DNA of 64,000 nucleotides, from positions 32,001 through 96,000 of the IMG/VR virus record IMGVR_UViG_3300045988_059940, one strand, 5' to 3'. Shown here in pieces: positions 946 through 35,573 of the stretch. A program made the position numbers and the translations under genes. Numbering within the stretch: the stretch's first letter is position 1; each line of letters opens with the position of its first letter. The notes under the pieces are model-generated. The model did no database searches. It was given only the letters and a program-made list of their open reading frames with translations, and was not told the DNA's origin. This DNA comes from a virus.

Positions 946-946
946 A

Positions 947-2502: not shown

Positions 2503-2510
2503 AATATTTT

Positions 2511-2555
2511 ATTTAAAACAAAAATAGCTGGAACGGGAATTAACCCATCCCAGCT
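2511..2555 (-). terminator. rho-independent terminator after the 344-aa structural gene
   Basis: On the minus strand: AGCTGGGATGGG-TTAATT-CCCGTTCCAGCT followed by ATTTTTGTTTT. Confidence 0.7.
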
Positions 2556-2565
2556 ATAAGGGAAA

Positions 2566-3600: not shown

Positions 3601-3671
3601 ATTTATTAATTTTTTCTACTCACCCTAATTTCAAAGGCTCAACCTAATGAGCTGGGCTTTCCACGTTAAAA

Positions 3672-5771: not shown

Positions 5772-5786
5772 ACGTCGTATATATTA

Positions 5787-6539: not shown

Positions 6540-6569
6540 AATATATTTAATCAGTGTTGTACCTATATA

Positions 6570-6610
6570 ATGTAAAGAAGTTCGGGGAAGAATTATCAAC
6601 CCCGAAGTTC
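6570..6610 (-). terminator. hairpin/attenuator after the major capsid candidate
   Basis: On the minus strand: GAACTTCGGGG-12 nt-CCCCGAACTTC followed by TTTACA. The T-run is weak. Confidence 0.45.
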
Positions 6611-6648
6611 ATATTACATTAATACGTTTATATAAGTATTATTGTTTA

Positions 6649-8172: not shown

Positions 8173-8194
8173 ATATTGTTATAAATTATATTAA

Positions 8195-9313
8195 TTAGTA
8201 CATACCTGTCAACAGGTCTGTAACTGATTTTTCTTTACTTGTTGCACTCTGCGAAGTGTGATTTTTAGCAGAGTTTCTTAAAAGTTTTCTAAGTTTCTCA
8301 GCAGCAGACGTTTCGCCAGTCTTTTTTGCTGTTGAAACTACGGCATCACCTTTCATAGTAAAGTAAGCAGATTCGATTAGGTTCTTTGCTAGATTAGAAT
8401 CAAAGTCCTTCTGGTATTGTGTATAACCATCTTTATCTGTCTTGAAAATATAATCATACAAAGCTTTGCGGTCTGCTTTTGGGATAGCAATGCCACGAAT
8501 TGAATCTAAACTATTAATACTATCTGTTACAGATTTCATAAATTGCTGTTGTTGAGCCTCTTGTTGTCTAGCCAACTCTGCCTGTTGCTTAGCATTTGCT
8601 TCTGCTTCATTCTTACGAATTTCTTTAAGCATCTCCAAAGCGTCTTCCGACTCTTCGTATAATACGCCAGCATCTTCATATCTAGCAATCTTGTTATTAA
8701 TCTGTTCATCTGTGTAGCCGTTGTGACGAAGCAAATCACCAATTACAGTACGTTGATTGGATTCTGATTCCAAATCAATGTTATCAAGAGTAAGTGCTTG
8801 TTTTTGTACTTGATAGAAATCTTCAAACTTACCACCATTCTTTACAAACTCATCTAACTTCTATATCCTATCATCTGCATACTGTGGAACTGAGTTCTAC
8901 TGTACAACATCTGTAAGGTACTTAGTTAGACCATCTACTGTAAGTGGTCTTTCTTCATCACTAATGTCTGCTATATTCCAACCTAATGATTCAGCAACAG
9001 CATCGAACAAAACACCAACTTGTTGTGCCTCAGCAACATCTTCATCAGTTGGTTCATTTTCATCGACGTCTTGTGTATCTTCTTTATCATCAGATTGTTC
9101 TTTGTCAGCAGGCTCTGTGTCTGCTGCTTGATTTATATCATTATCTTCCTCATCAGGTTCATCGCCTTCTGGTTCTTTAATTTCTGTTACTTCGTCCTCA
9201 ACCACAATATCTTCATCCAAGTTAGTAGCACTAGTATCTCCTTCTGAATTACCGTACATGCTTAACAGGTCATCAAATGTGGATGGATTAGTTTCTTGTT
9301 TACGTTTTGCCAT
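8195..9313 (-). CDS. scaffolding-protein-like (acidic N-terminus, Q/E/A-rich coiled coil; TAG at 8861 and 8897)
   Basis: ORFs 8897-9313 and 8195-8773 share a frame. The gap was walked and contains TAG only. The composition includes DEDIVVEDEVTEIKEPEGDEPDEEDND and AELARQQEAQQQQ. The gene lies directly upstream of the capsid candidate. Confidence 0.5.
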
Positions 9314-9362
9314 AATTATTAATTAATAATTAAATTATTTGTTTCGCTGTTTAATCAGCGTA

Positions 9363-9998
9363 TTACCATTCAGTATAATCATAAGGTCGCCTTAGAGTTG
9401 TAGGGACACCTTTTTTGGTTTTACCATACAACTAATCACGCATACCTTTCAATACTTTTTTCATATCTGGAACACCTTTTGTTTTGGCGTTCTTTGGATT
9501 TAGCTTCCATTTACTCATTGCAGCATCTATGCTCTTCATGTTAGCCATACGATTACTATATGTGTCATATGAAGATTCATAGTATCCTGCGTCTTTTAGT
9601 ATTCTGGCTGCTTTTCTTGGGTCTGTTTCGTCTAGTACATTATTGTACTTTTTATCCATTAAGAGATTGTCGCTAATGTAATAGTTAGCAAAGTCTTGTT
9701 CGTTTTTAAATTGTTTGTATTGATTAATATTTGGACTAACAATACCTCCATAATTGTGTAGATTTCTAGCAATAGGAGATGTACCATTTAATGACTCCAA
9801 TGCAGTTTGACGCATAGCATTATCTAGCCAATCTAGTTTTCCGACTTCTTGCAATCTGTCATATAATGCTGGTGCCATCTTTTCAACATATTCATCGTAC
9901 TAGTCTTTGCCTCCTGCATAATTACGAATATCCCAATAGTTTTCACCATTCTTCCAACGGTCAAATCTTTCTTGAAAAGACTTAGTATTATATCTCAT
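9363..9998 (-). CDS. head-module hypothetical protein (TAG at 9432 and 9900)
   Basis: ATG at 9998 abuts the portal TGA at 10001-10003. Frame 0 was walked down to the TAA at 9363. Confidence 0.55.
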
Positions 9999-10000
9999 AA

Positions 10001-12484
10001 TCAATTCTCCCCAGGAACTTTATTTTTTATAGCCACCTTAGCTTTAAGTCTTTCACGTTCAAGAGCAGCATCATCTTTTTGCTTTTGTAGCTCCATTTCA
10101 TGGTTCATGCGCTTCTTTTCCAAGTCAATCTTAGCATCTTCTATTTCACGCTTTTGACGTGCTTCATAGCGTTTCTAATAAGCATCTTGGTCAATCTTAC
10201 GCAGCTGCGTAGCTTCTCTTGCCATCTCTAATGGGTCTGGAATACCGTTCATATCAATATCCTTATTCTCAGTACCACGATATGTACTAATCTCAGCAAC
10301 TGCAATCTTAGTTTGATTATCAGCATCAATACGATAGCGTTCAAGGTCCATTTCAGCCTCTTTTAGCATAAGTTCTTGTTGCTTAGCTTCATTCTACATT
10401 TGTTGTAATTGCATTTGAGCTTGTTGTTCTTGTTGTTGCTGCTGTTGTTGTAATTGCTCTTGACGAGTTTGCATATCTTGCAGTTTCTGCTTAATGATAT
10501 TGAAGTTATCACTGGTAAGTAATTCCGCTGCTTCAAGTAAGCTAGCGCCATTTTGCATAGCAGGTTGTATAAGCTGTTGAAGTTTTTGTATATTCTCCAA
10601 ATCCTTAGAAGCATCACTTACAAATACATCCATATCTTCATAATAGAACTTCTGTGATATATTTAAGAATGCCCTTTCACCATTATCGAATACATATGAA
10701 AGCTTTTGTTTTCCTGAGTCTTGCCAAGCACCTTTGGCTGTATTTAGCAGCATGTTTAATACTCTGCGCTTACATTGATTGTGTACCCAGAATAAAGGCT
10801 CTGTAATATGTGAAGATTGTACAACAGAACGCTCTACATTACCAACAAGTTCAGATGAACTAATTGCACCTTGACGTTGTTCTGTAATACCAGATATAGT
10901 ACCTGCAAGCTGTTCAATCTTATCCATTAATTGAATATATTCAGATATGACATTACTCATTGTTAAGTCAAGAGCTGTAATCTAATTGAACTGAGCAGGT
11001 TTTCCACCTTCTCTCCCTGGCACATTCCAACCTTCGTCATATGGATTAATGAAGTTTACACCAACACTCGATAGATAGTGCATCCAACGTTCTGGTGTAA
11101 TATTCATAGACTTAGGTATCTATGTAATGTCCATATTTACAACCTTACCTTTATCTCTTGCAATAGCCAACTCCAACCTATACCACAATACAATATACAT
11201 GTATTGTAGAGGTTTAAGGATACTAACCAAAGACCTGGGCCTACTATTAGTATTGCTGTATACACAACCACAATATGGAAGCTTTTGTGAATTAGGATTA
11301 TCAAGACTTACAAATTGATACTCTATTGGTTGTATACCGAAGTATAAGTCATTTCCTGCTTTATATCCTTCCCAGACCTCTATAATCCAGTCTGGTTCTA
11401 CTGCTAGTTCTGTACCTACCTTCTTGTATGTCTCATCACATATATTGATTTGTGGTTCACCATTTTCGTCCATCGTGGTCACATAGAATATCTTCTTGAA
11501 AGATTTCCAGCAACAGTGATATACATCTACATGGTGTTTAGAGTTCATGTCTCCACCGTCTGAAAGGTCAATAGAACGCATTCTAATGCCCTAGAACGTA
11601 TCAACACCATCCTTCTCGATGTTATCTACACCAGGTGCACCAGAGAGCATCTCATTGAGTTTATTTAGCTCTTTTTCACTAAGTTTATCATAATACCTAT
11701 CATACACCTCTTGTATAGGTAATTTCATCTTACGAACACACCAAGAACCATCTTCTATAAACTCTAAATCTGGACTCTTATCATAATTAAAGTATAAAGG
11801 ATTTACACGTTCTGCATAAGGGTCACCATTTTGTACACCAACATAATATACTTCTGTACCACTAATTAGACCGTCTTTCCAACCTTTAATAAATTCGTTA
11901 GCTAAACCTAGTTTTTCTTTTAAGTACTCCAATGTGTGGTATGCTGTGTTTTCTATAATATCTTTGTAGTCCTTATCCATATATTTAGCAATAGCTTCTG
12001 GTGGCATTATCTCCCCAGATTGCAGTTGTTGTTCAAACTGCTACTGCTCTTCTGGACTCATTTTTGATTTTATTGATGCCATTATATACTACATCAACAT
12101 ATCCTTTTCTTTGTCTTGCAGCTCTGATACAGCATCCTGTGATGTACGTATAACTCTAAAATTCATTGGTCGTTTTGTTTCTTCACCAATTAATAAGTCT
12201 ATCTTTGGACGTACTATATTAAAGTCCTGTGGAGTAGCAGGAAATCCATCATCTACCTTAAATGGATTGGTTATACGTTTAAAGTCGTCCTCATTGAACA
12301 CACTATTGTATAAATCATAGTATGTTTGCATTTCACTAACATTACTACCTTTAACTAGTGCTGAATTACTTTTTGATTCGCCTATGATATAATCGACACA
12401 CTTATGTTGCCAATCCTTATCTTTCTTTGTAAGTGGTAGTTTTTGTTGCGGAAACGAAGAAGTATGTAAATTACTATCTATCAT
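10001..12484 (-). CDS. portal protein candidate (827 aa, 7 in-frame TAG)
   Basis: Five track ORFs (12089, 11591, 11120, 10394, 10175) are all in frame 2. All gaps were walked and contain TAG only, at 12089, 12041, 11591, 11120, 10982, 10394 and 10175. The stop is TGA at 10001. The gene lies immediately downstream of terL. The call rests on position and size. Confidence 0.6.
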
Positions 12485-12488
12485 ATCG

Positions 12489-14785
12489 TTAAAGTGTAAA
12501 TGTCGGTATGTCGTCCTATTCTGTCACATCGTTGTCCCAGTAATTATTACTAAACAATGGCGTTTCAAATAGTTCGACTTGTTTGTTTTTATCTTTATGT
12601 GCTTGTGTTTTTATCTGATATAACTCTTCTCTATATATCATTACCATACACAAAGCAATTACTCTATCGACGTTTCTTATTCCGTCATTTTCAATCAGCT
12701 CCTCTAATAGAGGTTCGCTGTATATTCGTTCTAAGTTTAGTCGTCCTGGTTCATATTCATCCATTAACCATTCTAATATTAGACCTTCTCCATACGCTCG
12801 TATTGATTTGGTCATATGACAACCTTTTCTTCTTTGTACCTTAGAATCTTTAAATATCTCTGAGATTACTTTGTCTGGCTAATCAGCCAATAAGTAATCA
12901 CAGTGTTTATTGGTGAAATAAGGATAAATTCCTTTACGTTCATTTTCAAATAATAGTCTAGCATTATAGAACAACAATAACTTTCTTACGTTCTCATAAT
13001 ACTCTTCTGCTGTATCTGGTCTACCAGAATACTCAGCTACTATTACGTCATTCCAAGCTTCACCTGCTTGCACGCGTTTAAATATAAATGTAGAGCCTAA
13101 CGAATTAGTAAAGCTCTCATCGTGGTCATCAGTTTGTTATCGTACAGCTTTTTATCTGTACTTCTATATGTTTCCATATAGCCCAGCATACATTATTACT
13201 TTGATAGTATCGGGCACTCGTGGCAAGATTATATTTATTCACTTGCTATGCGTTACGGTGACCTATAACCTTTCGTAATTTATAGGTTTACCACGGTGTT
13301 TCCACATATATTGATTATATAAGGTGTCCTCCGTATTTGCCCGATTTTAGACCCGCTGACTTACGCGTACGGGTCGCACCCCCCTACATATAATCCATAA
13401 GGAGGGTCTTTAACTGGATATTCCCAGATTACAATAGAGCCATGAGGTTTATCATCTTTTTTTAAATGATATGTTGTAATATCACCAGACTTTTTCTCTG
13501 TTGCTACAACATTACCATTCTCAAACCTAAGGTCTACTATATGTTTCATATTCCTAAGCTTTTCGTTTGTTCTAATTCTGGTTAGTTGATTCATCAATAA
13601 CTTTCTAGGGAATATGTTTTTTCCAAGTTCTAATACAGCTTCTTGTGGTTTCAAAGGACGTTCTGATACAAATCTGTCAATAGAAGTCTAACTGGCACCA
13701 CCATCTTTAATAATGTTACGTTGTTTTATTAATTCTTCTATTGCTTTCTCTTTCATTGAGTTTCCATCTTTGTCCATATATATAGGGTTTCCATTTTCAT
13801 CAGAACCCTCCATATTAGACCAAGCTGGAACAAAGAACCCACATTTTTTATCGGTCTATCCGTCATCCCATATGTTTTCAAATCCTAATACATTAAATGC
13901 GTCTGGATTGTAGAATATGTTCTTCAAACCATCAAATGAGCCACCTTCTGTACCACCTGTTCCAAATAGACACAGAAGACCGAAAGCAACACCATCGTCA
14001 GTTTCCACAGCTGGTTGTTCAACACGCCAAGCTGTTTCTAGATTAGGAAACTTACCACCTTCTTCAAATAGTACTAATTTACCACGAGTACCACGAAGAC
14101 GTTCTGGGTCATTCTTCAATGTAATTCCAGTAATGCTTGATAAATAACCCTGTTCAGTCTATTTACCAAATTCATCGGTTACCTTAAAACCAGCAACACG
14201 TTCCATACGAGTACTTGTAAGACGCTGTTTAGACCAGTCTGTATGTTTATCCACAAAGTCCATTATCTACCAGGCTTTGGTTAATATACCATCACCGATT
14301 AAGAATTTTTGTTCTGATGCTACTGCGAAGTTTTTAGAGCCTGGTATCAATTCATAGTTGCGCACTAGCATTGATGCACCTTTAAAACTATATCCTCTCT
14401 GCCTACATTTTAATGTAGCCATATGTTTACCTTGCTCTTCCGCTTCTTCTATTGCATGATAGTAGTAGTAATCGTAATCCCAAAATCTAGGGAAACCAAA
14501 TATACGCTCACGTCTTGTACGTTTTGCACCATATCTGTCTGTATACTCTACTTCTTGCAGTTTCATAATTGGGCTATAATTCAAATAAAAGTAATGATAA
14601 CCAGTTATAGCATCTCCATCGGGAGCTACATACCCATTTATACATCTGTCAGTCTCTCTGTCCCAATATGAATTATAGTCAGTAGTACCTCTTGGTGCAA
14701 GAGTATAACAACCATGTTCCTAAAAAAATATTGCGGCTTCACGGAATTTATCTGAGTTTATCACTCTCTTATTAAAATCAACCAT
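12489..14785 (-). CDS. terL: terminase large subunit, two exons: 14785..13369 and 13129..12489 (685 aa after splicing; 7 in-frame TAG)
   Basis: The N-terminus contains ...GDAITGYHYFYLNYSPI. The nuclease-domain motif GGCDPY|DHDES is restored by splicing. The C-terminal region contains ...NVDRVIALCMV. TAG occurs at 14720, 14267, 14159, 13856, 13688, 12879 and 12516. There is no TAA/TGA in frame in either exon. The spliced length of 2058 nt is divisible by 3. Confidence 0.8.
13130..13368 (-). ncRNA. ORF-less group I intron inside terL (239 nt)
   Basis: The reading frame changes and all frames are closed between 13073 and 13361. P1 pairs exon GACCCGU (13375-13369) with GCGGGUC (13356-13350), with a terminal U.G pair. 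P10 pairs GUCA (13360-13357) with exon-2 UGAC (13128-13125). The terminal G is at 13130. A long-range helix pairs AUCGGGCA (13345-13338) with UGCCCGAU (13216-13209). A GAAA-capped hairpin lies at 13181-13164. Confidence 0.7.
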
Positions 14786-14787
14786 AA

Positions 14788-15306
14788 TTAATTAGGTATT
14801 TCAAATCGACCTATAATACCACCACCTTTAACCTTACCAGATTCCATTTGTTCAGCTTTTGCTTGTTTCATTGCTATATCTAACGATTTAACAACAGAAC
14901 TAACATCTTTTAATATTCTGGTTATTTTGAGCGCAGTATCTATGTCCATGTTTCCTTCTGAATATTGATTCAGAGTTTCTATCAACCCTTCTGCTGCTGA
15001 CTGTGAAGAAGCTAGCAATCTGGTACTAGGAGTCTATTGAAACTCCTAGAACCTTTTTGCTAATTCTTTTACAGATACAGAAGGAATATAATTCTCATCT
15101 TTAAATACATCTTTTGCTACAATTGAAGCCCTTTCCTTCTCTGGATACGCTTCATATGGCGTATTCCATTTATATAACCATACGATGTATTCTATTTCCT
15201 TCAACGCCTATTCTTTATCTTTGGCAGTATTGTAATGTTCCTTAAATGGCGGTACTGCTAAGTCTTCGGTGTTGAGTTTTATTTTACTTCCTTGTATATC
15301 AAACAT
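14788..15306 (-). CDS. hypothetical protein upstream of terL (possible small terminase subunit; TAG at 15034, 15046, 15208)
   Basis: ATG at 15306 and TAA at 14788, which is 2 nt before the terL ATG. The frame was walked and contains TAG only. The function is guessed from position only. Confidence 0.35.
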
Positions 15307-15317
15307 ATTTAATTATA

Positions 15318-16547
15318 TTATGCTACTACTGTACCATTGGCGTCAACCCATTTGTTATCTTTACCAAACCAGAGCGGTTTATTCTTTACTGTATCAAAGA
15401 ACATTTGACCAAGTACTGGATTTGCTGGTCTAGTTGCAGCAGGAGTTTGTGGCAATACATCTTGTACTTTCCTACCATCAGCCAAATACATATCTCCGTT
15501 CACCCTAATATCTAATGCATTACTTCTTACTGTATCAGACTATCCATTACCTATTGTAAATAACGAAGACTATTTAGCTTGATTTGCATCTTTTACAATA
15601 GTACTATAAGAACCATCCCCAACTGTATTTGAAAACGCGCCGAATACAGCTGCATAATCTACATTAGATTTATTATTATTTCCAGTTATAAACTAAGCGT
15701 TTTTGTAAGACTTATTCTTTGCACCAGATATAAAAGACCCATTGGCGTTTGCGCCTATGTAGTTAGAAAATCCAAATGTTGCTGAATATTTTGTTTTTTC
15801 TGCAATATTCTATGTACCAACCGCAATACTATTTGTATAGTTTCCACGATTCTCACCAGCAAGTATTGAACATTTACCATCATTGCTAGTTGTAAACATA
15901 GAAATAATGCCAGGTTTTGTTAATCCGCATTCTATTGCATTTGTGATTATGACCTTATTGTCGGAATTAACATCAAATATTACTTTCTTTAATGTAGATT
16001 TTGAAAATTTTTCACCTTCTAGTTTTAATCCGTTGGCGTATTTTCCAACAATCATATATACATCGTAAGACTTTAAATATGTATATGACGAACTTGTACT
16101 ATCATACGCAGTGACCGCGATGTCACCATTTACAGACTTTATTTTAAATATATATGCATTTGCTATTATTAAATTCTGTTCACCTTTATTTAGAATGCCG
16201 AATCCGCAAAGTATAGATGTATTGCCCAAAGATGCAATATTATATCCAGAAATAATATCCGATGGACCAGAATATACATTGTGGTTTGACTTTATTGTAG
16301 TTAGTGTTATTGCTGTATTATTTATATTTTCTGTCTTATTGTCTGCGGAATAAGATGGCGATATAACACTATCTACTAATGAATTAGATGTTCCACCAAC
16401 AATATTTAAAGATTTTACTTCATTTGCATCCAATATTGTACCTGGTTCAAAACCATTTTTTATATCACCCAAAACTATCTATGGTGTAACGGCATACTTT
16501 AATCCTCCACCCTAAATAGTTGTACCATTTAATTTTACTGTTTCCAT
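15318..16547 (-). CDS. tail fibre protein (409 aa, 6 in-frame TAG)
   Basis: ATG at 16547 and TAA at 15318. Frame 0 was walked, with TAG at 16512, 16479, 15810, 15693, 15570 and 15540. The composition is Gly/Asn/Ser-rich and beta-like. The C-terminus GQMFFDTVKNKPLWFGKDNKWVDANG resembles fibre tip repeats. Confidence 0.55.
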
Positions 16548-19500
16548 TAATTATAATAGTTTTTAGTTGTATTATTATCTAATAGAGTTTTTGGATTTTC
16601 ATGTATAGCATTTGCACCATAGTTCATAAATACTTCTCCATACTCTAATTTATTATGTCCAGCTGAAACATATCTATTTGGTGTAAATACCTATGCAAAC
16701 TTAACCTTTCCTGGACTTACAAATAGTGTACTACCACAGAAAGCACCTCTTATATAAGATAATTGATTAAATCCGTAGAATACGCCACTTATCTATACTG
16801 GTTGAGATGAGTTGCCCGTAACATAATGACAATATGCAAATGCAAACCCTATGTCTCCTAATACAGACTTATTTATATCCTATATAGCAGAAAGATTAGT
16901 TCCTAGATACAATGTTATACCATTAAATGTATTTCTAAGAGTTGTTATATTAGGACAGTATTTAAACAAGCTCTTTGGTATTGTGTAATTTGTAGTACCG
17001 TCTAATAAAGTATATGTAGACAAATATGTACAATTATAAAACATTCCAGTTATATTTTTTGTATAACCATTAAATGGTAACAATAATACTGGTGGAATAC
17101 GTCCGAATAATCCGCCTCTATCTTGAACATTATAACCACATCCACAACCGTAAAATATATTCTATATCTCAGCATCACCATTACAATATCTAAATAAATC
17201 TGGTGCGCAACAATAGTTTAGTGTACCACTTAATATAGTATTATCTCTTGTGATTACAGAAGATACTAAGTTCTCATCGTGTTCATCATCTCCATCATGT
17301 ACCCCAGTCTTCTTATGTACACCATCATAACTCCACATTATTGTGTTGTTTACAGTATCAGGTTGAGCTTTCTAGAATTTACCATTTATAAATAATATGT
17401 TGTATGGTTGATATGTATGGTTTTGAATTTCCTCTGGACTGTTATTAACATAAGGTTGTATATAATTGTACTAAAATAGATTATTAGTAAAGTTTATCTT
17501 TGAGTTTGGTTTCTTTGTAGTAATTGTAGTTTTAAAATATACAACACCTTCTGGGTTCTATATTACCGTACCATCTTTACTCCACTCTATTGTTTCGCCT
17601 GTCTATTTATATTTAAATATATCACCGTTCTTATGTGTTATTGTCACAGTTGTTGTTGAAACACCATTTGATGTAGATGTTTCTGATTCAATTTTACCAT
17701 CAACTATTCCATAATATGTCTATGTAACATCCGTTTCACCGTGATATAATAACTTATACGGTATATGACTTTTTATCCGCTCTTGATATGAAGAATTTGC
17801 AAACAAATAAGATACCTAATTTAATGAAGTACAATTTGCAAACGAGTTCCCAGTAAGCTTATAATCAAACTTTAAATCTGAGAACAAACCATATACATCG
17901 GTTAACTATGGATTGTTTATAAATAAATTACCAGGTAACTCTGGAATAGATATTAGATTTTCTGCTGTTGAATTACTGAACAAATATCGTACAACACTTA
18001 ACTTTTTACAATCTTTAAATATATTTTCTGGAAAACCTCCAACAATACGCTTTTTATAGCCATATCCAAACATTGTTATATTGTTGATAGTGCTTCTATT
18101 ATTAAAATGCGTAAGGTTGGTAAAACCTTCAAATAACTGATTTGTAATTGGGAAATCAACAGATGTTGTACCTTTGCTTAAGCATGCAAATGCAGATATA
18201 ACTGATACATGTTGTGGATGCTTGAACATATTCTTAAAAGATATGGTTCCTTTTCCATAACTTGAAATAAAAGCATCAGATACAGAATTTACTGGATTTT
18301 CAAAAGTTATTGTATCATAATCTATAAAACATGCGTTAAAGCAACTAGTATAATTCTTTGTTAATAAATTCTTGGTAAACATTGTAAGATTTCCTCTATC
18401 AGCACCGCCAGTTTTTGATAATTCTAAATCTCCATTGGCGTATTTATTATCAAAGTCTACAAATCCTGCATTGTTTACATCTTCAACGATGATTGAATTT
18501 TTATGATTAAAAAATCCAGTAAATGAATTTATTTTATAATTCTTAGATGAATGTCTAAACATAAATCTATCGAACATGCCGTGGAATCCATTTGCCCAAC
18601 AATCTATATTTGTCAAACTATCTATAAGTGGACTAAACAGACCGTTGTCTTTCGTAACATTGTTTTCATCGTGTTCTGGTGAGAATATTCTAATGTTTTT
18701 ATAACATCCCCATAGAATATCACGAATATCCCAAACGCCAGTTGCGAAATGATACATATAACGATTTGGACTATTATCCACAGTAGCTGTACGTTCAAAG
18801 TTTACCTTTGACTAAAAGAACATACCACGTAAACTCTTCATCTGTCCTAAGTTTGATAATGCGTAGTATACATCAAATACTGTACATGCGGTTTCTCTAA
18901 ACATATAATCACACACAGCAGTTCCAAATGTTATATTAGTTACACCATCACCACTTTGCCACGGCATCTTCCAATTCAATGGAGGCTGTTTACCTTTACT
19001 ATCTGGATTAGTTATTTCGTATGGCATAAGAACTCTACCGTCTGTGTCTACAACAGATTTGTTCATAAATTTAACAGTAGATACATCTGAACCATGTAGT
19101 GAGAATTTATTCAGCAGATAAAACGTTCTTGTTGATGCAATTACTATATTACCATATAAACGCTTTAAATTGGCACAGCCTTGGAATTGCTAAGTTAAAG
19201 TAATAGGTTTATCTTTATCATTAGCAAACTGTATGTATTCTACTGTACTATTTTGGCTAATATTGAATGTTTGTAAACCTGTAAACTTACTAAGATTTAA
19301 TATATCTTTGCTAGATGGACTTCCTTTTATTGCACTACCGTTCAAGTATAAGTTTTCAACGTTAGCTTCATTACAGTTGTCGATAGTAACATAATTCAAC
19401 TTAGAATTTGAAGATAAATCTATACTGGTAAGTGCTCGCAAATCAGATAGTGTAACATAATTTGTATTAGAATCACCAATCAATGCTTGGTTGTTTATTA

Positions 19501-21037
19501 TTCTTACACTATCTAACCTAGGACAGTTTTCAATAGCAATTTGTGTTAAGTTTACATTATTTGCTATTGTTAAATTAGTAAGATTTTTACAGTTTATAAT
19601 CTATACCTTTTGTAAGTTATTATAACCAGACAAGTCCAAAGATGTATAACCATCGCAATCTTCTATATAAACCGTCTATAAATTGTTACATCCTGTCAAG
19701 TCAATCTGTTTTAGATATGGTTGATGTCTCAAATCCAACTCATTTATGTTAGACCTTTGTATCTATAATGTTTTCAAAGGTACGTTGGTCGGTATGTATA
19801 TGTTTGTAATACATTTACTACCAGATATATTTATATCAGTAAGTTTAGTAAACTTTGTAAATGCGTGTGGAGTTTTGCTGTTTTGTTCTATATCTAAAAC
19901 AAATGTTTTCGTGGGGTCTAAGCACTGTGTATTAGAAAAGTCCATAGTTCTAATCTAAGACTGTATGTCTTTTCTAAATACATCTAATTTAAAGTCTGGG
20001 CTAAAATGTTTGTTGCCACTCAAATCTATTTCATATAATGCTGGGAATCCTAATGCATCTATTGTATTTTGTGCTTCTGTTGCAGCTAATATAGATACCT
20101 ACATACTTGATAACTTATTGTTAGCATTACCAAGCTTTATGAAGTTATTTGAATTAGTAATGTTCCAGTTATATGGACCACCATATTTAATGTTGCCAAC
20201 GTTTACAAACGTTTCTTTATTGTCCTATAAGAAATAGAAAGCGGTAACTGTATCGCCAATACTTATCTTTGATATTATTGGACAGTTTGTTGTTACTGGG
20301 AATACCTGTTGATTTGTACCCATTATACTGTTACCAGTAGATACATCTGCATTTGATTTAAATGTAATAGATTGCTGTTGCTTTGCAGTATCGCGCCACT
20401 TAAATAAGCTATCTAAGAATATAGTATGCTTCTTCAACCAATTTCTACTATGTGCAATCTTACGACCATGTAGCTTAGTCATATCTTTTGTATTACTAAT
20501 TTGGTCGTTAGTAAATTGTAATAGATATTTTAGCTTATAGTCATAATTAAATATCAACGAACCACAATCTGATGTTTGCTTATCAAAGTATTCATCAATG
20601 AAATAATTCGTAAATGTATCATATCCTTTTGACTTAGCTAAATCTTCTGTAAACTTTCTAAAATCATACCAATATTTTGTATATAGTGAATTTACATCTT
20701 CTCCAAATACTGCCCTACTAAACGATGTGTCTAATGACAACCACAGTTTGTTTGTATTTGCAGACACTGTTTTTCTAGATATAGCTTCGTCGAAATTAAA
20801 TGTTTCTGATACATACTACAATCCATTTTGTGCATTTGCAACAGTACCCTTGTTTGTTAGATACTTAATCCACACATCTGGTGTAATAGACAACTAACCT
20901 TGGTTATCACCGCTCATAGAACAGTCTAGGTCATAAAAGTCAGTAAGGTATTTGTTTCCATCCCAAGACCTATATGTTGAGTTCTTTCCAAAGTTATCAA
21001 CTAATCCAAAGAAGTTTGCAATGATGAAGTATTTCAT
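16535..21037 (-). CDS. very large tail/receptor-binding protein with leucine-rich-repeat (BspA-like) regions (1500 aa, 21 in-frame TAG)
   Basis: Seven track ORFs are all in frame 2. Every gap was walked codon by codon and contains TAG only. For example, 17084-17905 has 8 TAG and no TAA/TGA across 274 codons. ATG at 21037 and TAA at 16535. LRR-like periodicity is visible in 18.0-19.7 kb (..NLT.I.I.NC..L..V.., SIDLSSNSKLNYVTIDNC). Confidence 0.65.
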
Positions 21038-21115
21038 TGCACTTTCTACATTGAATCCTAGGTTCTCAGCACTTACTGCATTGGAATCAATTTCAATATC
21101 TTGTTTCTAACCAGT

Positions 21116-24100
21116 CTTATAATAGTTATTAAAGTTATCAACTGAGTATAAATCATAAGACCCTGCAATATAGTTTTTAGAAATCGTACCAATAGAGTCA
21201 CTACTATAACAGCGTTCTATTGGGAAGCGCATTATGTTCTTTACGAACTGTACAAATCCTGGGTAATCGCTAACCTATTTATTTGATGGGTATCTAACAT
21301 CAAACCTACGATTTAAGATTTCTCTATCACTTTGCCAGAAATCACCATTTGAAGTATTTATACCTTCTGGAAGTGTATCTTTTACATTTGCAAAATCACT
21401 TAGAGATACAGTATCTTTAATTTCTATCCAGTTTGCATTTTGTGTATCTTCCTCTACGTATTTTACTTTATCTTTATAGAATGGGAATGTAGTTACCTCA
21501 AATACATTATTACCTTCATCTACGATTTTATTTACTTTCTTAAATCCTAAGTTTCTATATGCGTTACGACCTAGGTTAAATGAATATATTCCAAGTGGCG
21601 TAGTAGATACTTTATTTTGCGCATCTGTGTAGAATTTCATTATTAAGAATACAGGGAAACCTTCTACTGTATGTTTAAGTGTAGCTGTCTTTTGCTGCTT
21701 CTTAACATAATCAGACTCATATACATTGTCTACTGCTTTTTTATCGAATGGGAAATATTCAGATGTACCAATTCTACCAAGTGCACTATTTATAAACGAA
21801 CCAATAGAAGCATTACTAGCATGAGAGCTGTCTACAACGTCAGCTTTAAGTGTATATGTCTGTTCAGGAAACCATGTAGATTTTGGTACAAATGCTGTTG
21901 TGTCAGGTACAGTTATGTTTACGTTCTTAACTGCGTCTGCTAGCGTTGAAGTACCTTGTAATTCAATTGTGACACCGTTAATTGTTTTAATACTAGTGTC
22001 AATACCTGTCTTATCTTGTTTGTTTATTCCAACTGGGTCCCAGTATTGTATAACTTTATTTGTAGTAGCAGTTAGAGTTGTAGATGATGCTGATTGCTGT
22101 TTTACAAACTAATCAAATGTCCAAGATGAGTCGTTACTAACATCAATCAATACAATAGGTATGCCAATAAATGCAGCCTATTCTTGTATGCTTTTACTAT
22201 TTAATCTACCATTAGAATCTAGTAAGAAGTCTACATTATAGCCAGTATGCTCGTTGTATAGGTATGATTTAATACTACCATCAGATTTTCTTTCACAGAA
22301 GTTCTTTTTTAATTCTACCTATATTCTTGCATAGTTTGGAGTTCCATTTACATAATCAGTTGACACAATATTATTTATACTATCAACCATTATGTCGAAC
22401 TCATTAAGTGCATATGTATATATATTCATGTTATATATATCTACATCACACTTATTATATATTACAGACTTTCCATTCTTAATATATTGTCTAGCTCCTA
22501 AATATATAGTATCACCAAATACAATTGGAGTTGTTAGATTTCTAATAGCTGACAATACTCCGTCCAAATACACCTTGACTACATATGATACACTATCCAC
22601 ATATCCAGTTGCTATTTGTGTACGTGTCGTCTACTTCTTACACGTAATTGTAATATCATTTTCAGTACTATCTTCAAGCTATATTACATTTTCATTATTA
22701 ATATAAATGTTATGTACATCAATGGATATACCATTAATCATAGCTCCAAGATTCTAGTCTGCAACAGAAGTATTACCAGAGAATAATATTGTTCTCTCAT
22801 CATCTGGGTGATAGTCTGCTTTATAATGTATATGAATTGTAAATTCGTCACCGCTTGACGATATGATGTCATTAAACTTATATTTTCTAGATTCTAGTGA
22901 AATGTCATCAAATTTGGCATATGCACCATTACTAATCCTATAATACTATACAGCAGAATCTAAAATAGATACTCTTGACCTAATATTACTTTCCATTGTT
23001 CGCAACACAGAACCTATTTGGAATTGTGATTTATAGTTTGTATTTGTAAATTCAAACGTATCATCACCAACGTTCTATGCTCTGGCATGCAATGAGAATA
23101 TTCTGTTGTTTATAATATTAGATGTGTCTGATAAATATGTAACTGATGATTTTATAAACTTAATGTAATATGTCGTAGTTGCTGTCTTCTGTCCAGAAGT
23201 AACGGTCACCTTCAACGGTACTGTCTTATTTGCAACAGTCCACGGTTTATTATTTACAGATATATAATCACTAACCTACCTACCAAATACACCGTCAGCG
23301 TCTTGTCTAACAAGATTTCCATCTATTTCTATATTATACTTATAAGACGTGTACTGACTTACATATGCTGTAAATACAACATTAACAGAACCATCCATAC
23401 TAACCTCTGTTGGCTGTCCTTGTACTTTGCTCATTACAGCAGACGATATTAGAATTTCTGATGACACCACTGTCATTGTAGATTTAATCGTCTTCTTTAC
23501 AGATTGTGTTGTTTTGTTCTGTAAAGTACATTCTACAACATAACTATCTATGTAATCTTCTGTCTATCCTATCAAGTCACTAAGTACAATAGATTTTAAG
23601 AACTAGTCGGTTGTAGCAATTACTAAGTCATACTCTTTTGTAATTGTATGTAATCTACCTATGAGCTTAATTGTCAACTTGTAGTTACCGACAACACCTA
23701 CACTATAATACAACTTTAAAAAAGAAGTATTTAAGCTAGTTAGTGTACTTTGTATATCTTCACATGACATTTCTATGTTGTTGTCAATAATAACACCAGA
23801 CCACTGTGCAGAGCCGTATATACCCTTTTCGTCATCTTCATAAGATGCAGATATATTCAGCTTTCCAGTATGATTTGATAATTGACTTACAACAGTATCA
23901 TATGGTACAAACAGTATAGGATTTGACGCATTAGCTACTGAACTATATATCTATGTACTACCTATACGAGCTATTACATTCCACCCTTTATTGTATTTTA
24001 CACTTAAATCTGACAGCTTTATCTGTAAACCTCCCTAGTCCATTATTATTTGTGAACCAGTTGGTTTATCATTTACAGTAATAGTTGTATTTACTTCTGT

Positions 24101-24346
24101 ATCACCAGGTGTTGCTCCTCCACCTCCACTACCAGAGCCTCCACCTCCATGTAGTGCGAGCCATGATATATTTCCTTGTGCGACAGTTAAATCATCTTTT
24201 AATCTTTCCATCGCAGTATCAACAGAGATTATATTCTCTCCGTCTTTTAAGAACTTAGGGTTTGTTGTACCGATACCTTTTGCATCATTACTTGCTACAA
24301 TATCCCAAGTTCTTTTTGATTCATTATATTTCTTTATGTTATTCAT
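21116..24346 (-). CDS. large tail fibre/spike protein (1076 aa, 14 in-frame TAG)
   Basis: ATG at 24346. Frame 2 was walked across all gaps down to the TAA at 21116-21118. The N-terminus is MNNIKKYNESKRTWD... followed by a GGGGSGSGGGG linker. Confidence 0.6.
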
Positions 24347-24357
24347 TGTAAGAAAGA

Positions 24358-27300
24358 TTATAAGGTGATTGTATATTTGTCCTATGTGGTTATATTATAT
24401 GCAGATAAATCTTGCGGTAATGATTCTTTCAATGTCATTGCTACTGCTGATAGACTATCTAATTGTTTATTCATGTCATACTTTGCAGTATTCTTATCTT
24501 CATTCACCGTCCAAACACCTTTTATTTGTTTAGCTGTAATATCTATTTTACTATCTGACATTTCATACACTACATACATGGGGTAATGTTGCTTAACATT
24601 TTCCTTCGGTGTAACTTCACTAGTCTTAGCTTTAAAATATGCTAACAACCAAGGTATTTGATAATCTGGCCCAGACGGCTGTTCTTTGTTTGAAACTAAC
24701 TTCCAACCAGTTGCCTATGACATAACATATGTTGGTGCATTGATTTTATCTACTATTTCAAATCTTGCAAATTGTAACCAATCATTATTTATATCTGATG
24801 CCTTTGTTACCTAAATTACTGGTTTTCTAGAAACACCTTCTGTTACTTCGCCCATAAACTCAACGGCTGTATTTTGCCTGTTATTCTATATATAATCAGC
24901 TGGTGCATCATATATTGGTTTACTTATACTATAAGTATGTTTGTGACCACCAAATACTAATCGTATACCATACTTCTTAAACAATCTAGAAAACCTATAT
25001 GTACCATTGTTATTTAGTGTATTTAAGTGTGAACCACTACGTCCTTTTACACCATTCATGAAGTCCCAGGTTACGATTGTAAATGGCATTTCATGCATAT
25101 AACAAAGTGTATTTTTACAGTCAGTTGGATTCTCTACACCATAGTATATCTATAAATCTTTCTTTAACCAATCTTCAATTTTAGCGTTCATTGTTTTAGC
25201 AAAGGTAGCATCGCCAGAGTTTGTACTAATGTTCCAATCATCTGTATACACTTTACTAGTAGCTACCGCATTTTCTGAATTAATAGATATGAAATGGAAT
25301 TTCCCATAATTAAACGAATATGTAGAATACATTAAACATTTCTTCCCATTCCATGTTAATTCATATTCATTGTTTGGGTCTAGCTCAAATGTAAAGTATT
25401 TCAATACATTTACATGGTTATATTTAGATGTAACATCATCACCGTCTGTTAGTTGTGTAGCATTATGTCCACACAAGTCATTGTTACCAACAGTAAACAT
25501 TTCAGTTTTATCACCTAAGAACTCGTCTAGTGCTTGATAGTAATCTAACCATTCATTCTCCCTATTACCGTTCTAAGTAATATCTCCTGTATTTATCAAG
25601 AAGTCTGCGTCTTGTTGGTCTTGTGCTAACATCTTGGCCGATTTACGCCAAGCCTGGTAATCTATCCAACTGAACCCTTGTTGGTCAGTTTCTTGTACGA
25701 ATTTAAAAGTTGTTACCTCTGAGTTGTCTTTGACCGTTAACGTCTTAATTGTACTATAATATGACTCGTCAAAGTCTCTTCCTATGCGATATTCATATAC
25801 GCCAGCTTCAAACTATTCACTTAATACTACCTTATGAGTAGTAACCATTGTACCGCGTACCGTCTTCCAGCGTAATCTTTCATAATGGTCTATGAACTTA
25901 TTTATAACAGCTGAGTTAGAAGAATCATCTCTTGTTATAGAATATTGTTTCTTCCATTCAGTTTGTCCTTTTTTACGATATTCTATAAACTCATCGTAAT
26001 ATCCGACAGATACCCAATTGAAGCATCTAGAAGCCTTTTTGTGATTTGCTGTATCGGAAGTGGCTTGAATACCAAATGTACACCTTATGCAGTTTGGTTT
26101 ATTCTTATTGAACTCTGTTTTATCTGTAAAGAAGTTTTTACCCTCCCATGATGCTTTTGGTGTATATTTCTCTTTCATCTCATCTAGATAGTAATACTGT
26201 ATACTATTACCTATCTTTGTAGTTTGACGTTTAAGATTTACATATATCCATAAGCTTGTAGACTTTCTAGCACCATATGCTTTATTACCCTATTTGGCTG
26301 GTTCTAACATAAACCTACGTATAAATAGCGCATCATTCCAAGAATCTCCTGGCTCTAATAAGAATGTAGTTCCACCTTCACTTAACGAGCCTACACCAAA
26401 TCCACAGCTATCTATATATCCTTTATTTACCTTTTGTTTATTCCAAGGTGAAGCTAACTCTCCAACAGCATATAGATTACCATTGGAATCGTACACCCAG
26501 TTATCTGTTGGACTACCAACACACAAATAGAAGCTAGAACAAGTTTGGCTAAACTTTATTAGTTCACCATTTGAGAACCACTCTTGGTCATATGTATTAA
26601 CATCAATGAATTGAGAGTTATAATCATTACATTTAGCTCCTCGTATTAAATATGTAGAGCCTGCTTTTATTACACCACTTAGCGGTAATGTGTGCCACTT
26701 GTATCCGTTTGTACCTCCACCATATGGTGTACCATCTGTATAGAGTAGATATATACCATTTAAGTTAATATCTTCTGTTGAACCATTTGCAAGCTCTACA
26801 AAGTTGTGTGAACACATACAGTCTTCTGAACCTTGTCCACCGCAATATACTTCATTTATACAGAGTAGATGATTTATAAATACACCCCAAGACCCATCTG
26901 GGTTACCTATACCAGTTGGAGTTTGTATATTCTTATGTATCATAAACTCGCCAGACTTACTTACTTCTACTTTGTATGTAGATTCACCGTCTGTAAAGTT
27001 TAGATACCTTAGTTTCGTAGCATATAAATCTTCTACACTAATTCCACCACCAGAACCTCCTGAGCCACCATCTGTTGTGCCTACAAGATTGAACTTCCCA
27101 TCTTTATATAGAACTAAACGTTTTTTATCTGTATAGAATAGTATTTCACCGTCTATTAGGTTTTGTCTATTCTTATTGAAATTAGCTACTGTATCCATCT
27201 TTATAGATACATGATTTACAGTAGGTTCTATTCCTTCTGTATTAGGTTTATCTTTAACTATACCTGGAATATCTTTTGATTCCTTTGGTTTAAGAGGGTC

Positions 27301-28029
27301 TGCTGAACGCATGATAATTTCCCTAGCACTAGAATGTGCATCACCAGCTACTACACCGTTGAGTATTATTTTATTTACAACACTCATGTTTTTGTATATT
27401 TCAGCGAGTGCTGCTTTTATCTTCTTTAACTCATCAGCATCATTCTATGTTAGATTTGTAGTATCACGAGTGTCTATCCACAACTTGCTTTTATCCTCTG
27501 GTGCAATTTGTCCAACATATATCTACGAACTTGATATTTCTGATAAACCTGTTGATAACAGACGATATAATACGCCTGTTGTTTTATTATATATTATTTT
27601 TGTAGATGCTTCTTTGTAATCATCAGATGACCCATAATTATCAGTGGATGCCCACTGTGCATATGCAAAACCTGCCTTTATTGCTAGGAATTTTTTATGT
27701 GCGTCACTGTATACTATTTTATCGTAAGTATTTGCTACGTTTACATCATCGATAGTATATATTGTCGTATCTATTGAATCTATTGTTAATACGTCAGACT
27801 TACGACCATTCTGCTTTATTTTTTTTAATATTTCATCAATGTTTATATCTGGCTATTGTGCCTATAAACGCTCTACAATACGTTTAATGGAGTTGGCATC
27901 AAATATATCCCCATCTTCAAACTAATGGTTATTGATATATTCGCCACGCTATAACATGATTACTTTTGGAGTCCTAGGTATATCTATGTTATCAATAATC
28001 CTAGTACCAAATAGTTTTGTTTTTTTCAT
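24358..28029 (-). CDS. large multidomain tail-associated protein with a lamin-tail-like domain and a metallophosphoesterase domain (1223 aa, 14 in-frame TAG)
   Basis: ATG at 28029 and TAA at 24358. Frame 1 was walked across all gaps. A GGSGGSGGG linker is present. HNFVELANGSTEDINLNGIYLLY is LTD-like. The phosphoesterase motifs are GDIT-TAG-NG, GNNDL and FGGHKHTYS. Confidence 0.6.
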
Positions 28030-28705: not shown

Positions 28706-28731
28706 GTATTATTTTATATTAATTTATATAG

Positions 28732-28819
28732 ACGCCCCAGTAGGAGTCGAACCTACCCTGTCACCTTCAGAAGATACGCGGTTTTAGAGACCGCCAGTGC
28801 CACCGTACACCATAGGGCG
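28732..28819 (-). tRNA. amber suppressor tRNA, anticodon CUA, class II (long variable arm), 88 nt
   Basis: Manual fold: acceptor CGCCCUA/UGGGGCG; anticodon stem GCGGU/ACCGC with loop C-U-CUA-A-A; variable arm of about 20 nt with a 5-bp stem; T arm GUAGG-UUCGACU-CCUAC. No CCA is encoded. The base after the acceptor stem is U. Confidence 0.8.
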
Positions 28820-28976
28820 TTATGACGCTGTTTAAAGACTCACACGTCAACGTCTATGAGAAATCGTATTTTTACGTACTAATGGTGAATAATAGCACGG
28901 TGCGGAGGTCGTTATAGTCAGACCGCCATGACTTTGTAAAATTATGCCTAAACAAAATAAAAATATTTTATTATAG

Positions 28977-29049
28977 TTGCGGAGGATGGATTCGAACCAC
29001 CGACCTCACAGGTTATGAGCCTGGCTATCTACCTCTGATATACTCCGCG
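28977..29049 (-). tRNA. tRNA-Met (CAU), initiator-like
   Basis: The 5' end CGCGGAG and 3' end CUCCGCA-A give a C1xA72 mismatch with A73, as in bacterial tRNA-fMet. The anticodon loop is CUCAUAA, the D arm is UAUC/GAUA and the T loop is UUCGAAU. Only two of the three initiator G-C pairs are present in the anticodon stem. Confidence 0.7.
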
Positions 29050-33088: not shown

Positions 33089-33885
33089 ATTTAGTACATA
33101 GTTCAGTAAAAATTATACAACAAAAGCCTGGTTTACAAGGTGTGTACGAACAGATAGAAAAGGCTGGTAGGTTAGCGTATAAATCAGAAGATAATATCAC
33201 ATACGACATATATGGAAATAGTACCAGTGCTGAGAAGTTTGTAGAAAAACTAATACAGTTAGGCCATATGTCACCACTAGAACACGGTACAGTCTATCTA
33301 CATTTACCAAAAGGTGTTGGTGCAGATTCATACCAATTAAGTCCATTTTGTACATGCTATATTTCAGAAGATAGTGGATGGTACATTACTACAAACTACC
33401 GCTTTATGTATGAAGCAGAATTATTGCAAGACTTAAAGTACATATGTGAACCAACAGATAGTCATGAACGTAGAATTACAGCTGATTTCATATGTGATAG
33501 AGGTATATCACACGAATTTGTAAGACACAGAGTATTCTCATTCTTAATGGAAAGCTAGCGTTATTGTAACTATACAAAAAGTAAATTTAACAATATTATC
33601 ACATTTGTAATGCCCTATTGGTATACAGAAGAAACACCAAAAGAAGCTAGATTACTCTTTGATAAACAACTACTAGATGCCGAAAAGGCATATCTTACAA
33701 TGATAAACGACTATAAGTTGAAACCAGAAGAGGCTCGTGTAATCCTCCCAAATGCTACAAAAACAGAGCTACTAATGACTGGTACAGAGTCTCAATGGTA
33801 TGAGTTTTTTAGACTAAGGTGTGCTAAATCAGCTCATCCAGATGCCCAAAAATTAGCTAATAAATTAAAGGAGATTATATTATGA
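33085..33885 (+). CDS. thyX: flavin-dependent thymidylate synthase ThyX with an in-frame TAG at 33556-33558
   Basis: ORFs 33085-33558 and 33610-33885 are in the same frame. The sequence GHMSPLEHG...RHRVFSFLMES-TAG-RYCNY carries the RHR..S....S.RY ThyX signature, and the C-terminal part VILPNATKT...FFRLRC...AHPDAQ also fits ThyX. Confidence 0.85.
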
Positions 33886-35023: not shown

Positions 35024-35116
35024 TAATTTTGTATATATGGGTAATGGATTGTTGGCACAAATATATGCCATGAAGCCTGTTATAGTTAAAAGTAAAGACG
35101 GAGAGGAGATTAGAAT

Positions 35117-35563: not shown

Positions 35564-35573
35564 AAGTTGCGAT

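Follow-up and report, generated by a model that had tools for sequence, protein, structure and literature searches.

An amber suppressor tRNA of a crAss-like phage carries an extra arm with a glutamine anticodon-like loop

In other phages, Gln has been found at UAG by proteomics and electrospray ionization mass spectrometry (PMC9523058, PMC12636597), and among the phage suppressor tRNAs that have been tested, 28 of 29 tRNA(CUA) inserted Gln and all 13 tRNA(UCA) inserted Trp (PMC12636597). A Prevotella-clade glutaminyl-tRNA synthetase (GlnRS) charges a phage tRNA(CUA), and the E. coli enzyme attaches Gln to many tRNAs of this kind; the study reporting these data is silent on any extra arm (PMC12636597). 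GlnRS recognizes its tRNA through the anticodon (U35 and G36), the acceptor end and the 10-25 pair, mutation of which can cost up to 10^5-fold, and the enzyme charges CUA tRNAs, including those with a long variable arm, when a suitable acceptor end is provided (PMC9976931). Borges et al. described the charging of suppressors by host synthetases as “a final question”, and suppressors are reported “missing” in roughly half of TAG-recoded phages. Here we analyzed a window of 64,000 nucleotides (nt) of crAss-like phage DNA with 35% GC (IMG/VR record IMGVR_UViG_3300045988_059940, positions 32,001 to 96,000; all coordinates below count from the first letter of this stretch) and, in it, an 88-nt gene for an amber suppressor tRNA(CUA) (28732..28819, minus strand). 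Our comparisons indicate that this tRNA has a class I body, that its codon stands for Gln and that its variable region holds an extra arm, the loop of which resembles a Gln anticodon loop.

The tRNA gene was called by ARAGORN, the only tRNA caller used throughout, which located six tRNA genes in the window and placed the CUA one at 28731-28819 on the minus strand; its label for this tRNA, “Pyl”, derives from the anticodon alone. The call together with the sequence and the homologues defines a tRNA running from C1 to the discriminator U73, with CCA not encoded. Read from the 5′ end of the RNA (all coordinates on the minus strand), the acceptor strand CGCCCUA (28813..28819) forms 7 bp with UGGGGCG (28733-28739), the latter being followed by the discriminator U at 28732. 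The dinucleotide UG leads into a compact D arm, GUGU-ACGGUG-GCAC (28797..28810), which in relatives is a 5-bp stem with a 4-nt loop, and a second UG leads into the decoding anticodon arm, GCGGU-CUCUAAA-ACCGC (28778..28794), assigned by both ARAGORN and the sequence, in which a 5-bp Watson-Crick stem presents the anticodon CUA at 28785-28787. After a single G comes the extra arm (28762..28776), where the stem UAUC/GGUG closes the heptaloop UUCUGAA (28766-28772), with CUG at 28768-28770. The linker ACAGG, which completes a variable region of 21 nt, connects this arm to the T arm, GUAGG-UUCGACU-CCUAC (28740..28756).

Homologues of the gene are held by about 20 other phage contigs (individual fetched loci are designated L007, L109 and so on), and in these all arms are kept via compensatory changes. 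The fold of the window tRNA is therefore not a product of chance. In the GenBank phage collection the sole match of this tRNA type is in crAssphage cr113_1 (NC_055896, Buchavirus coli, Suoliviridae), where the homologue is annotated as tRNA-Gln and lies directly upstream of the terminase gene, TerL. Position 14:19 of the D arm is G.U or A-U in the relatives, while the cr113 group has the D-loop CGAU and the T-loop UUUGACU in place of CGGU and UUCGACU. The coupled changes of G19 to A and C56 to U in that group fit the G19:C56 elbow covariation, which is expected of a folded, working tRNA. CCA is encoded right behind N73 in L007, L109 and L114. When the region was compared with the phage collection by megablast, a distant Bohxovirus match was all that emerged, and in a scan for promoters and terminators around the gene the sole “terminator” was the anticodon arm itself.

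The general tRNA model of Rfam (RF00005) does not report the window tRNA(CUA), which falls below its gathering threshold; the best Rfam match is tRNA-Sec (RF01852), at 42.9 bits against a cut-off of 47. The same holds for the compact-D-arm subfamily as a whole (the window, cr113_1, L109, L007 and L084), which goes unreported by RF00005 at the gathering threshold, and hairpin-bearing suppressors with normal D arms are scored at 48-61 bits by this model. This blind spot may add to the “missing” suppressors of recoded crAss-like phages.

Sibling phages with 75-77% portal identity carry class I tRNA(CUA) of 72-76 nt. Their acceptor, D, anticodon and T arms can all be aligned with those of the window tRNA, which differs by an insertion of ~17 nt in its variable region and by a shorter D loop. 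In L113, the same body has a normal D loop and the hairpin is present. Because the body aligns arm for arm with these class I siblings, the comparison indicates that the window tRNA is a class I suppressor body with an added arm and not a derivative of tRNA-Ser, -Leu or -Tyr. Among the features that mark class II tRNAs, it has the long variable region (more than 10 nt) folded as a stem-loop, here 21 nt with a 4-bp stem. The discriminator is U73, with U, A or G in relatives, and not the G73 of tRNA-Ser or the A73 of tRNA-Leu and -Tyr; the D arm has a 4-5-bp stem and a 4-6-nt loop rather than a 3-bp stem and a large loop; and in homologous proteins the conserved columns for its codon hold Q or TAG only, not Ser, Leu or Tyr. 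The window’s own tRNA-Ser and tRNA-Leu also differ in look from the tRNA(CUA). The tRNA is likewise distinct from tRNA-Pyl, as its variable region is 21 nt and not 3, its anticodon stem is 5 bp and not 6, and U8 and G9 precede the D stem instead of a single nucleotide.

An earlier note on this DNA, made from its letters, had recognized a phage amber suppressor tRNA(CUA) with a clean fold and a genuine long-arm anomaly, which ARAGORN, the sequence and the homologues all bear out; ordinary tRNA-Gln is without such an arm. It gave the variable arm ~20 nt and a 5-bp stem; the length stands, at 21 nt, but the covariation described below assigns 4 bp and a 7-nt loop (the minimum free energy fold of the single sequence draws 6 bp and a 3-nt loop). 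The class II body that it proposed is contradicted by the class I siblings and the compact D arm, and the 8-bp acceptor stem that it considered (A-1:U73) does not survive comparison, as the -1 base is not conserved and CCA follows N73 directly in relatives. The likeness of the extra-arm loop to a Gln anticodon loop had been overlooked.

To which amino acid UAG corresponds can be read from the late genes. The late/structural block on the minus strand (54..28029) is rich in in-frame TAG codons and would need the suppressor. The longest open reading frame (ORF) grows from 1,890 to 7,848 nt once TAG is read through, and the 16 ORFs between 1369 and 28705 (the last being a TAG-free dUTPase ORF) hold 86 TAG compared to 63 CAG and 228 CAA in ~8,700 codons. 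The plus-strand early genes have just 5 in-frame TAG. The suppressor is located, with a tRNA(CAU) that adjoins it on the upstream side (28976..29049, minus strand; ARAGORN and Rfam), at the head of the minus-strand block. The late proteins of the window were translated with TAG as X and aligned to 80 IMG/VR loci with portal relatives of 73-99% identity, all 80 being TAG-recoded themselves. The residues found opposite the window TAG codons were Q 595, TAG 373, N 130, E 124, A 104, L 70 (34 of them from one column), T 69, K 66, S 44 and Y 29.

At the conserved columns of the portal protein and TerL there is nearly nothing but Q or TAG. In the portal gene (10001-12484, minus strand; 7 TAG) these are residue 132 (codon at 12089-12091; Q 57, TAG 17, plus N 5 and D 1), residue 455 (11120-11122; TAG 44, Q 36), residue 501 (10982-10984; Q 67, TAG 13) and residue 697 (10394-10396; Q 66, TAG 12). 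In TerL (13361-14785, minus strand; 5 TAG) they are residue 173 (14267-14269; Q 38, TAG 27, plus E 4) and residue 366 (13688-13690; Q 37, TAG 34). The single TAG of thyX (33085-33885), at 33556..33558 on the plus strand, is opposite the Q of the S-Q-R-Y/F motif in alignments to the ThyX structures 3gwc, 2af6, 3ge9 and 3fnn of the Protein Data Bank (PDB), and the gene product matches Pfam Thy1. Because these conserved portal, TerL and thyX positions alternate with Gln, the alignments indicate that TAG in the window phage is Gln and not Ser, Leu or Tyr. Of the features of a Gln-inserting code-15 suppressor, the CUA anticodon, late genes with in-frame TAG and TAG opposite Gln are found here; the tRNA-Gln acceptor end is not. 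Charging of the window tRNA with Gln is presumably carried out by GlnRS, given these comparative data and the experiments on other phage tRNAs (PMC12636597).

The earlier note had left the decoded residue open on mixed hints, with Ser, Leu or Tyr as one option and an unusual scaffold charged by GlnRS as the other. The evidence favors the second: tabulated over TerL, portal and ThyX, the conserved columns contain Gln or TAG, TAG alternates there with none of the three class II residues, and the mixed hints come from weakly conserved sites. Of the Q or G proposed opposite the thyX TAG, it is Q that the four structures show, and the TAG of the paralogs at 34577-36005 lies opposite a gap in the alignment, which makes it uninformative.

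The loop of the extra arm, UUCUGAA, is arranged like an anticodon loop that carries a Gln anticodon: position 2 is U, positions 3-5 spell CUG and position 6 is A. The anticodon loops of native phage tRNA-Gln(CUG) read CUCUGAC. Across 30 distinct hairpins the stem showed a covariation of 0.632, compared to 0.175 for shuffles, with 0 of 500 shuffles as high and slid registers at no more than 0.17. Pairs 7:15 and 6:16 are formed in all 30 hairpins and the third pair in 22, and pair 6:16 occurs as CG (14), GC (11), UA (3), AU (1) and UG (1). A shifted register with a 5-nt loop was ruled out by the pair counts. We define a two-arm suppressor by at least 3 covarying pairs in the variable region that close a 7-nt loop of the form N-U-(cognate anticodon)-R-N, and the arm of the window tRNA has this form.

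A search of IMG/VR with the anticodon arm alone recovered three distinct tRNA(CUA) bodies bearing a Gln-like loop, and a scan requiring UCUGA recovered many further bodies, such that the loop Y-U-CUG-A-R is shared by many unrelated phage tRNA(CUA) bodies. No loop motif was imposed in the anticodon-arm scan or in the unconstrained amber and opal censuses, and these two censuses comprised at least 120 matches each. Among the matches listed in the amber census, the new distinct tRNA(CUA) were 72 of class I and 14 long ones, and 7 of these 14 contained a Gln-anticodon-like heptaloop; about 13 more loci were hairpin loci that had been fetched before. The loops among these listed matches are CUCUGAA, UUCUGAG, CUCUGAC, CCCUGAA, UUCUGCA and, in L260 and L276, CUUUGAA, which contains UUG, the other Gln anticodon. 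Over all loci, such a motif was present in the variable arm of a single one of 163 long (at least 82 nt) non-suppressor tRNAs, a tRNA-Ser, and none of the listed native tRNA-Gln sequences is long enough for the arm. As judged from these comparisons, the extra arm reproduces the cognate anticodon loop, and the sequence of its loop is under selection.

Several related tRNAs deserve mention. L089, an 88-nt tRNA(CUA) of the same body family with a compact D arm, has the variable arm AGCUUUGGAACAUUCGGG, which contains no recognizable Gln anticodon loop and is an exception to the pattern. Two amber suppressors per phage are found in L083, L095, L100, L104, L129, L153, L154 and L157, and in L083, L095, L100 and L104 a class I Gln-like tRNA(CUA) lies a few bases from the hairpin-bearing tRNA(CUA), which suggests that the paired forms are not redundant. 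Two sense tRNAs have unexpected long variable arms with loops unlike their cognate anticodons: the 87-nt tRNA-Lys(UUU) of L169, where the arm forms an AAGC/GCUU hairpin, and an 86-nt “His” GUG tRNA in L151 with a Leu-like body. A scan of metagenome-assembled genome (MAG) contigs gave 17 matches, of which 3 were hairpin suppressors and one was a class I tRNA(CUA), the others arising by chance. The three hairpin tRNA(CUA), L397, L401 and L411, are on contigs binned as Bacillota, Acutalibacteraceae and Candidatus Nanosyncoccus, which are probably phage or prophage DNA. If genuine, they extend the design to hosts that may be without GlnRS.

If the extra arm supplies anticodon identity, Trp-inserting opal suppressors are expected to carry a CCA loop, and such loops were found. 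A motif-directed scan identified 13 phage tRNA(UCA) of 94-98 nt, the variable arm of which is a 5-bp stem closing CUCCAAA. Among the matches listed in the unconstrained opal census there were 20 class I and 27 long new tRNA(UCA), and 16 of the 27 have hairpins with the loop N-U-C-C-A-A-A, that of the Trp anticodon arm; the other 11 are mostly tRNA-Sec-like. In these 16 the U, C, C and A, which the search did not impose, are invariant, and the 5-bp stem is 87.5% paired. The covariation of the opal hairpins is 0.953, compared to 0.253 in shuffles. Among the matches listed, the Trp-type loop was in no amber suppressor and the Gln-type loop in no clear opal suppressor. The acceptor ends follow the same division: the hairpin-bearing UCA tRNAs have A1:U72 and G73, as does native tRNA-Trp, and most of the hairpin-bearing CUA tRNAs combine G73 with a 1:72 pair that is weak or mismatched, as does native tRNA-Gln.

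The complete 98,557-bp genome of cr113_1 contains one tRNA gene in all (by ARAGORN), and this is of the two-arm type. As the sole tRNA gene, it is therefore the sole phage-encoded suppressor in a genome whose late genes are interrupted by more than 230 TAG, but by neither TGA nor TAA. A phage-encoded aminoacyl-tRNA synthetase was also looked for; none was detected by Pfam in the ten largest plus-strand ORFs of the window, and none is present in the cr113_1 annotation.

We consider it probable that the suppressor inserts Gln and that its extra arm makes up for the anticodon identity that GlnRS requires and the CUA anticodon does not provide. In such a mechanism, the CUA arm would read UAG on the ribosome, while G36, which GlnRS needs alongside U35, is missing from the decoding anticodon. 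The anticodon-binding domain of the host GlnRS would then meet an intact Gln anticodon loop on the extra arm, which would reach the pocket either by swinging or by a coaxial-stacking swap with the decoding arm, in what would be, in effect, a five-way junction. The outcome would be efficient and specific Gln charging, with decoding and charging identity placed on two arms of one tRNA. Both the reading of the extra arm by GlnRS and the geometry of that reading are inferred. We also lean, if less firmly, toward a general form of the proposal, whereby phages have split the decoding triplet from the triplet read by the synthetase, with copies of CUG or UUG (Gln, in amber suppressors) and of CCA (Trp, in opal suppressors) being read by GlnRS and TrpRS, respectively. 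Such tRNAs would constitute a third architectural class and the basis of TAG-to-Gln and TGA-to-Trp recoding in many phages.

Several points weigh against this proposal. Access of the arm to the anticodon pocket is the weakest step of the mechanism. GlnRS is a class I enzyme, which docks tRNA with the variable region toward the solvent. Because this canonical docking keeps the arm out of the anticodon pocket, a rearrangement must be assumed. The arm is also not indispensable, as the class I tRNA(CUA) siblings without a hairpin are equally TAG-recoded, unless a second gene of theirs lies beyond the fetched DNA. Some relatives, of the L084 type, have a mimic stem of just 2 bp, extended by non-canonical pairs. 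In two of the scans (the UCUGA amber scan and the opal motif scan), the loop motif was itself imposed by the search. Finally, the acceptor end of the window tRNA, C1-G72 and U73, is not the usual Gln signature and departs from the code-15 acceptor end (a weak 1:72 pair and G73). It is shared by a subclade composed of the window, L085, L090, L106, L108, L136, L139 and L007. In native tRNA-Gln genes and most hairpin suppressors, a weak 1:72 pair is combined with G73 (or A73); among the 55 distinct hairpin-bearing CUA tRNAs, 46 have the weak 1:72 pair and 42 have G73. With its C1-G72/U73 end, the subclade may depend more heavily on the mimic arm, or the GlnRS of its hosts may be tolerant.

Two competing explanations give the tRNA an identity other than Gln. 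A true class II suppressor, descended from tRNA-Ser, -Leu or -Tyr and reading UAG as Ser, Leu or Tyr, would have the long variable arm seen here. A single change separates CUCUAAA from the anticodon loops of tRNA-Tyr (GUA) or tRNA-Ser (CGA), tRNA-Sec is the top Rfam match (42.9 bits), and Ser-like and Leu/Tyr-like tRNA(CUA) do occur in other phages (L087, L103, L206 and L236). We nevertheless regard this origin as extremely improbable, given S 44, L 70 and Y 29 against Q 595 opposite the window TAG codons, the thyX TAG opposite Q, the alignment with class I siblings, the compact D arm and a discriminator that is U here and A or G in relatives, with no fixed G73 or A73. Moreover, a 7-nt anticodon-like variable loop was found in none of the Ser, Leu and Tyr tRNAs first inspected. 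Least credible of all is a Sec-like tRNA or allo-tRNA with an 8-bp acceptor (A-1:U73) and SerRS identity. In the L136 and L139 tRNAs U(-1) is opposite U73, and CCA comes right after N73 in L007, L109 and L114; the architecture is 7/5, compared to 8/5 in tRNA-Sec and 8/4 or 9/3 in allo-tRNA, the anticodon differs from UCA and the Rfam score stays under the cut-off. These data outweigh the A at -1 in the window, L085 and L007 and the alignment by the Rfam tRNA-Sec model of A(-1) to U73 together with a long D stem.

Other explanations accept Gln and differ in what the arm does. The CUG hairpin could be the working or a second anticodon arm, making this a tRNA-Gln that reads CAG alone or besides UAG, with the CUA hairpin as the accessory. 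About 5 nt lie between the CUG hairpin and the T stem, as in a class I variable loop, and the Trp-type mimic has the full 5-bp stem and 7-nt loop of an anticodon arm. However, it is the CUA arm that always has a canonical 5-bp Watson-Crick stem and adjoins the D stem, the Gln-type mimic stem being just 2-4 bp, and both ARAGORN and Rfam put the anticodon at CUA or UCA. As this tRNA is also the only one in cr113_1, with its more than 230 in-frame TAG, and the host already reads CAG, we find this reading very improbable. Improbable too, though somewhat less so, is indirect delivery of Gln by a non-discriminating GluRS and the amidotransferase GatCAB, with the mimic arm serving those enzymes. Many Bacillota and Clostridia taxa are without GlnRS. 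Hairpin suppressors are on contigs binned to these groups (L397 and L401), and a Crassvirales-phage preprint describes a phage GatB-like gene. On the other side, crAss-like phages infect Bacteroidales, a Prevotella-clade GlnRS charges a phage tRNA(CUA) (PMC12636597) and no amidotransferase was found among the large window ORFs. The indirect route is, in any case, a variant of the GlnRS mechanism and not a true alternative to it. Possible, yet unlikely in our view, is that the arm was selected for a role unrelated to identity, as a decoy or shield for an anticodon nuclease, a handle for a modification enzyme, a GlnRS sponge or an antideterminant, with Gln charging achieved via CUA (U35) and the acceptor end. 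The hairpin-less class I tRNA(CUA) of equally recoded siblings, the Gln charging of many phage tRNA(CUA) by E. coli GlnRS (PMC12636597) and a canonical GlnRS geometry without obvious reach to the variable arm are all compatible with such a role. What it predicts neither for amber nor for opal suppressors is the identity of the loops, Gln (CUG/UUG) in the former and Trp (CCA) in the latter; the matching Gln- and Trp-type acceptor ends are equally unpredicted, and among the screened tRNAs the arm is missing from the phages’ own sense tRNA-Gln and tRNA-Trp. Charging identity relocated to the extra arm, as proposed above, is the reading that we prefer.

The window and related contigs contain other features of note. 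Use of TAG is very uneven inside the late block, with up to 36 TAG in the neighbors of three TAG-free ORFs. Examples of TAG-bearing late genes are those for a 2,599-aa protein (16547-24346, minus strand; 36 TAG) and a 1,223-aa protein (24358-28029, minus strand; 14 TAG). The TAG-free late ORFs, also on the minus strand, encode a 507-aa protein taken as the major capsid protein (6649-8172), a 344-aa protein (2566-3600) and the dUTPase-like protein (28145-28705). The TerL frame seems split into the ORFs 12489-12815 and 13361-14785 (minus strand), which are separated by a gap of ~0.5 kb. For TerL of cr113_1 the annotation lists Hint/intein and homing-endonuclease domains, and an intron or intein is possible in the window too. 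In the early region, a RAGATH-12 RNA is matched by Rfam at 40423-40504 on the plus strand with 89 bits (gathering score 75). Elsewhere, transfer-messenger RNA (tmRNA) genes (L112, 1296-1636; L289, 8434-8873; both minus strand) are found on phage contigs with large tRNA arrays and hairpin suppressors, and L289 has in addition, beside its tRNA array and tmRNA-like gene, a partial match to the OLE (Ornate Large Extremophilic) RNA at 7338-7576 on the minus strand (105.6 bits).

In the literature that we searched, including the main phage-recoding papers, no anticodon-like variable arm was described in suppressor tRNAs; coverage was partial and an earlier description is possible. The phage-recoding papers leave open how host synthetases come to charge the suppressors, to which a relocated identity anticodon, if true, is a concrete answer. 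It would also account for the observed reassignments being those to Gln and Trp. More generally, it would represent a new principle of tRNA identity, whereby an anticodon-dependent synthetase is satisfied by a mimic arm inside the same tRNA, a logic like that of tRNA-Sec achieved by other means. Such an arm could serve as a design template for suppressor tRNAs of anticodon-dependent enzymes, both in genetic-code expansion and in therapeutic nonsense suppression, where CAG to TAG and TGG to TGA or TAG are single-base routes to premature stop codons.

Among described systems, the closest are the Sup-CTA tRNAs of code-15 phages and the E. coli supE tRNA-Gln(CUA), which share the CUA anticodon and the insertion of Gln, supported for the window by comparative evidence. 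The Sup-CTA tRNAs are, in addition, phage-encoded alongside TAG-recoded late genes and presumably charged by the host GlnRS. Compared to these, the window tRNA adds a 15-nt stem-loop with a Gln anticodon loop in the variable region, a compact D arm and the C1-G72/U73 end, and it is unreported by the Rfam tRNA model. With tRNA-Sec, its nearest Rfam model, it shares the reading of a stop codon, an identity that would lie outside the anticodon and involve a long extra arm, a length of ~90 nt and a small D loop; it differs in having CUA and not UCA, a 7/5 and not an 8/5 architecture, no G73, an arm that resembles an anticodon loop and not a SerRS-binding helix, and no Sec machinery. The amber suppressors known to be mischarged by GlnRS (acceptor-stem mutants of tRNA-Ser(CUA), and tRNA-Trp(CUA)) are laboratory mutants of Ser and Trp bodies, whereas the window body is Gln-like and its long arm appears to be a dedicated insert. 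Allo-tRNAs (PMC5389517) are likewise non-canonical, with some being phage-borne and some acting in nonsense suppression, and the anticodon plays no part in their identity. However, they have 12-bp acceptor branches arranged as 8/4 or 9/3, compared to an acceptor of 7 bp and a T stem of 5 bp here, and they obtain Ser or Ala identity via the variable arm or G3:U70, with no anticodon mimic. The nearest precedent for the arm itself is found in messenger RNA, in the anticodon-arm mimics of the E. coli thrS operator, which is bound by ThrRS, and of yeast synthetase mRNAs. These too are copies of a cognate anticodon loop; they are read by the anticodon-binding domain of the synthetase, and a change of the triplet switches the enzyme that is bound (PMC9976931). 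Those mimics regulate translation, whereas the mimic described here is located inside a tRNA, where it would serve aminoacylation.

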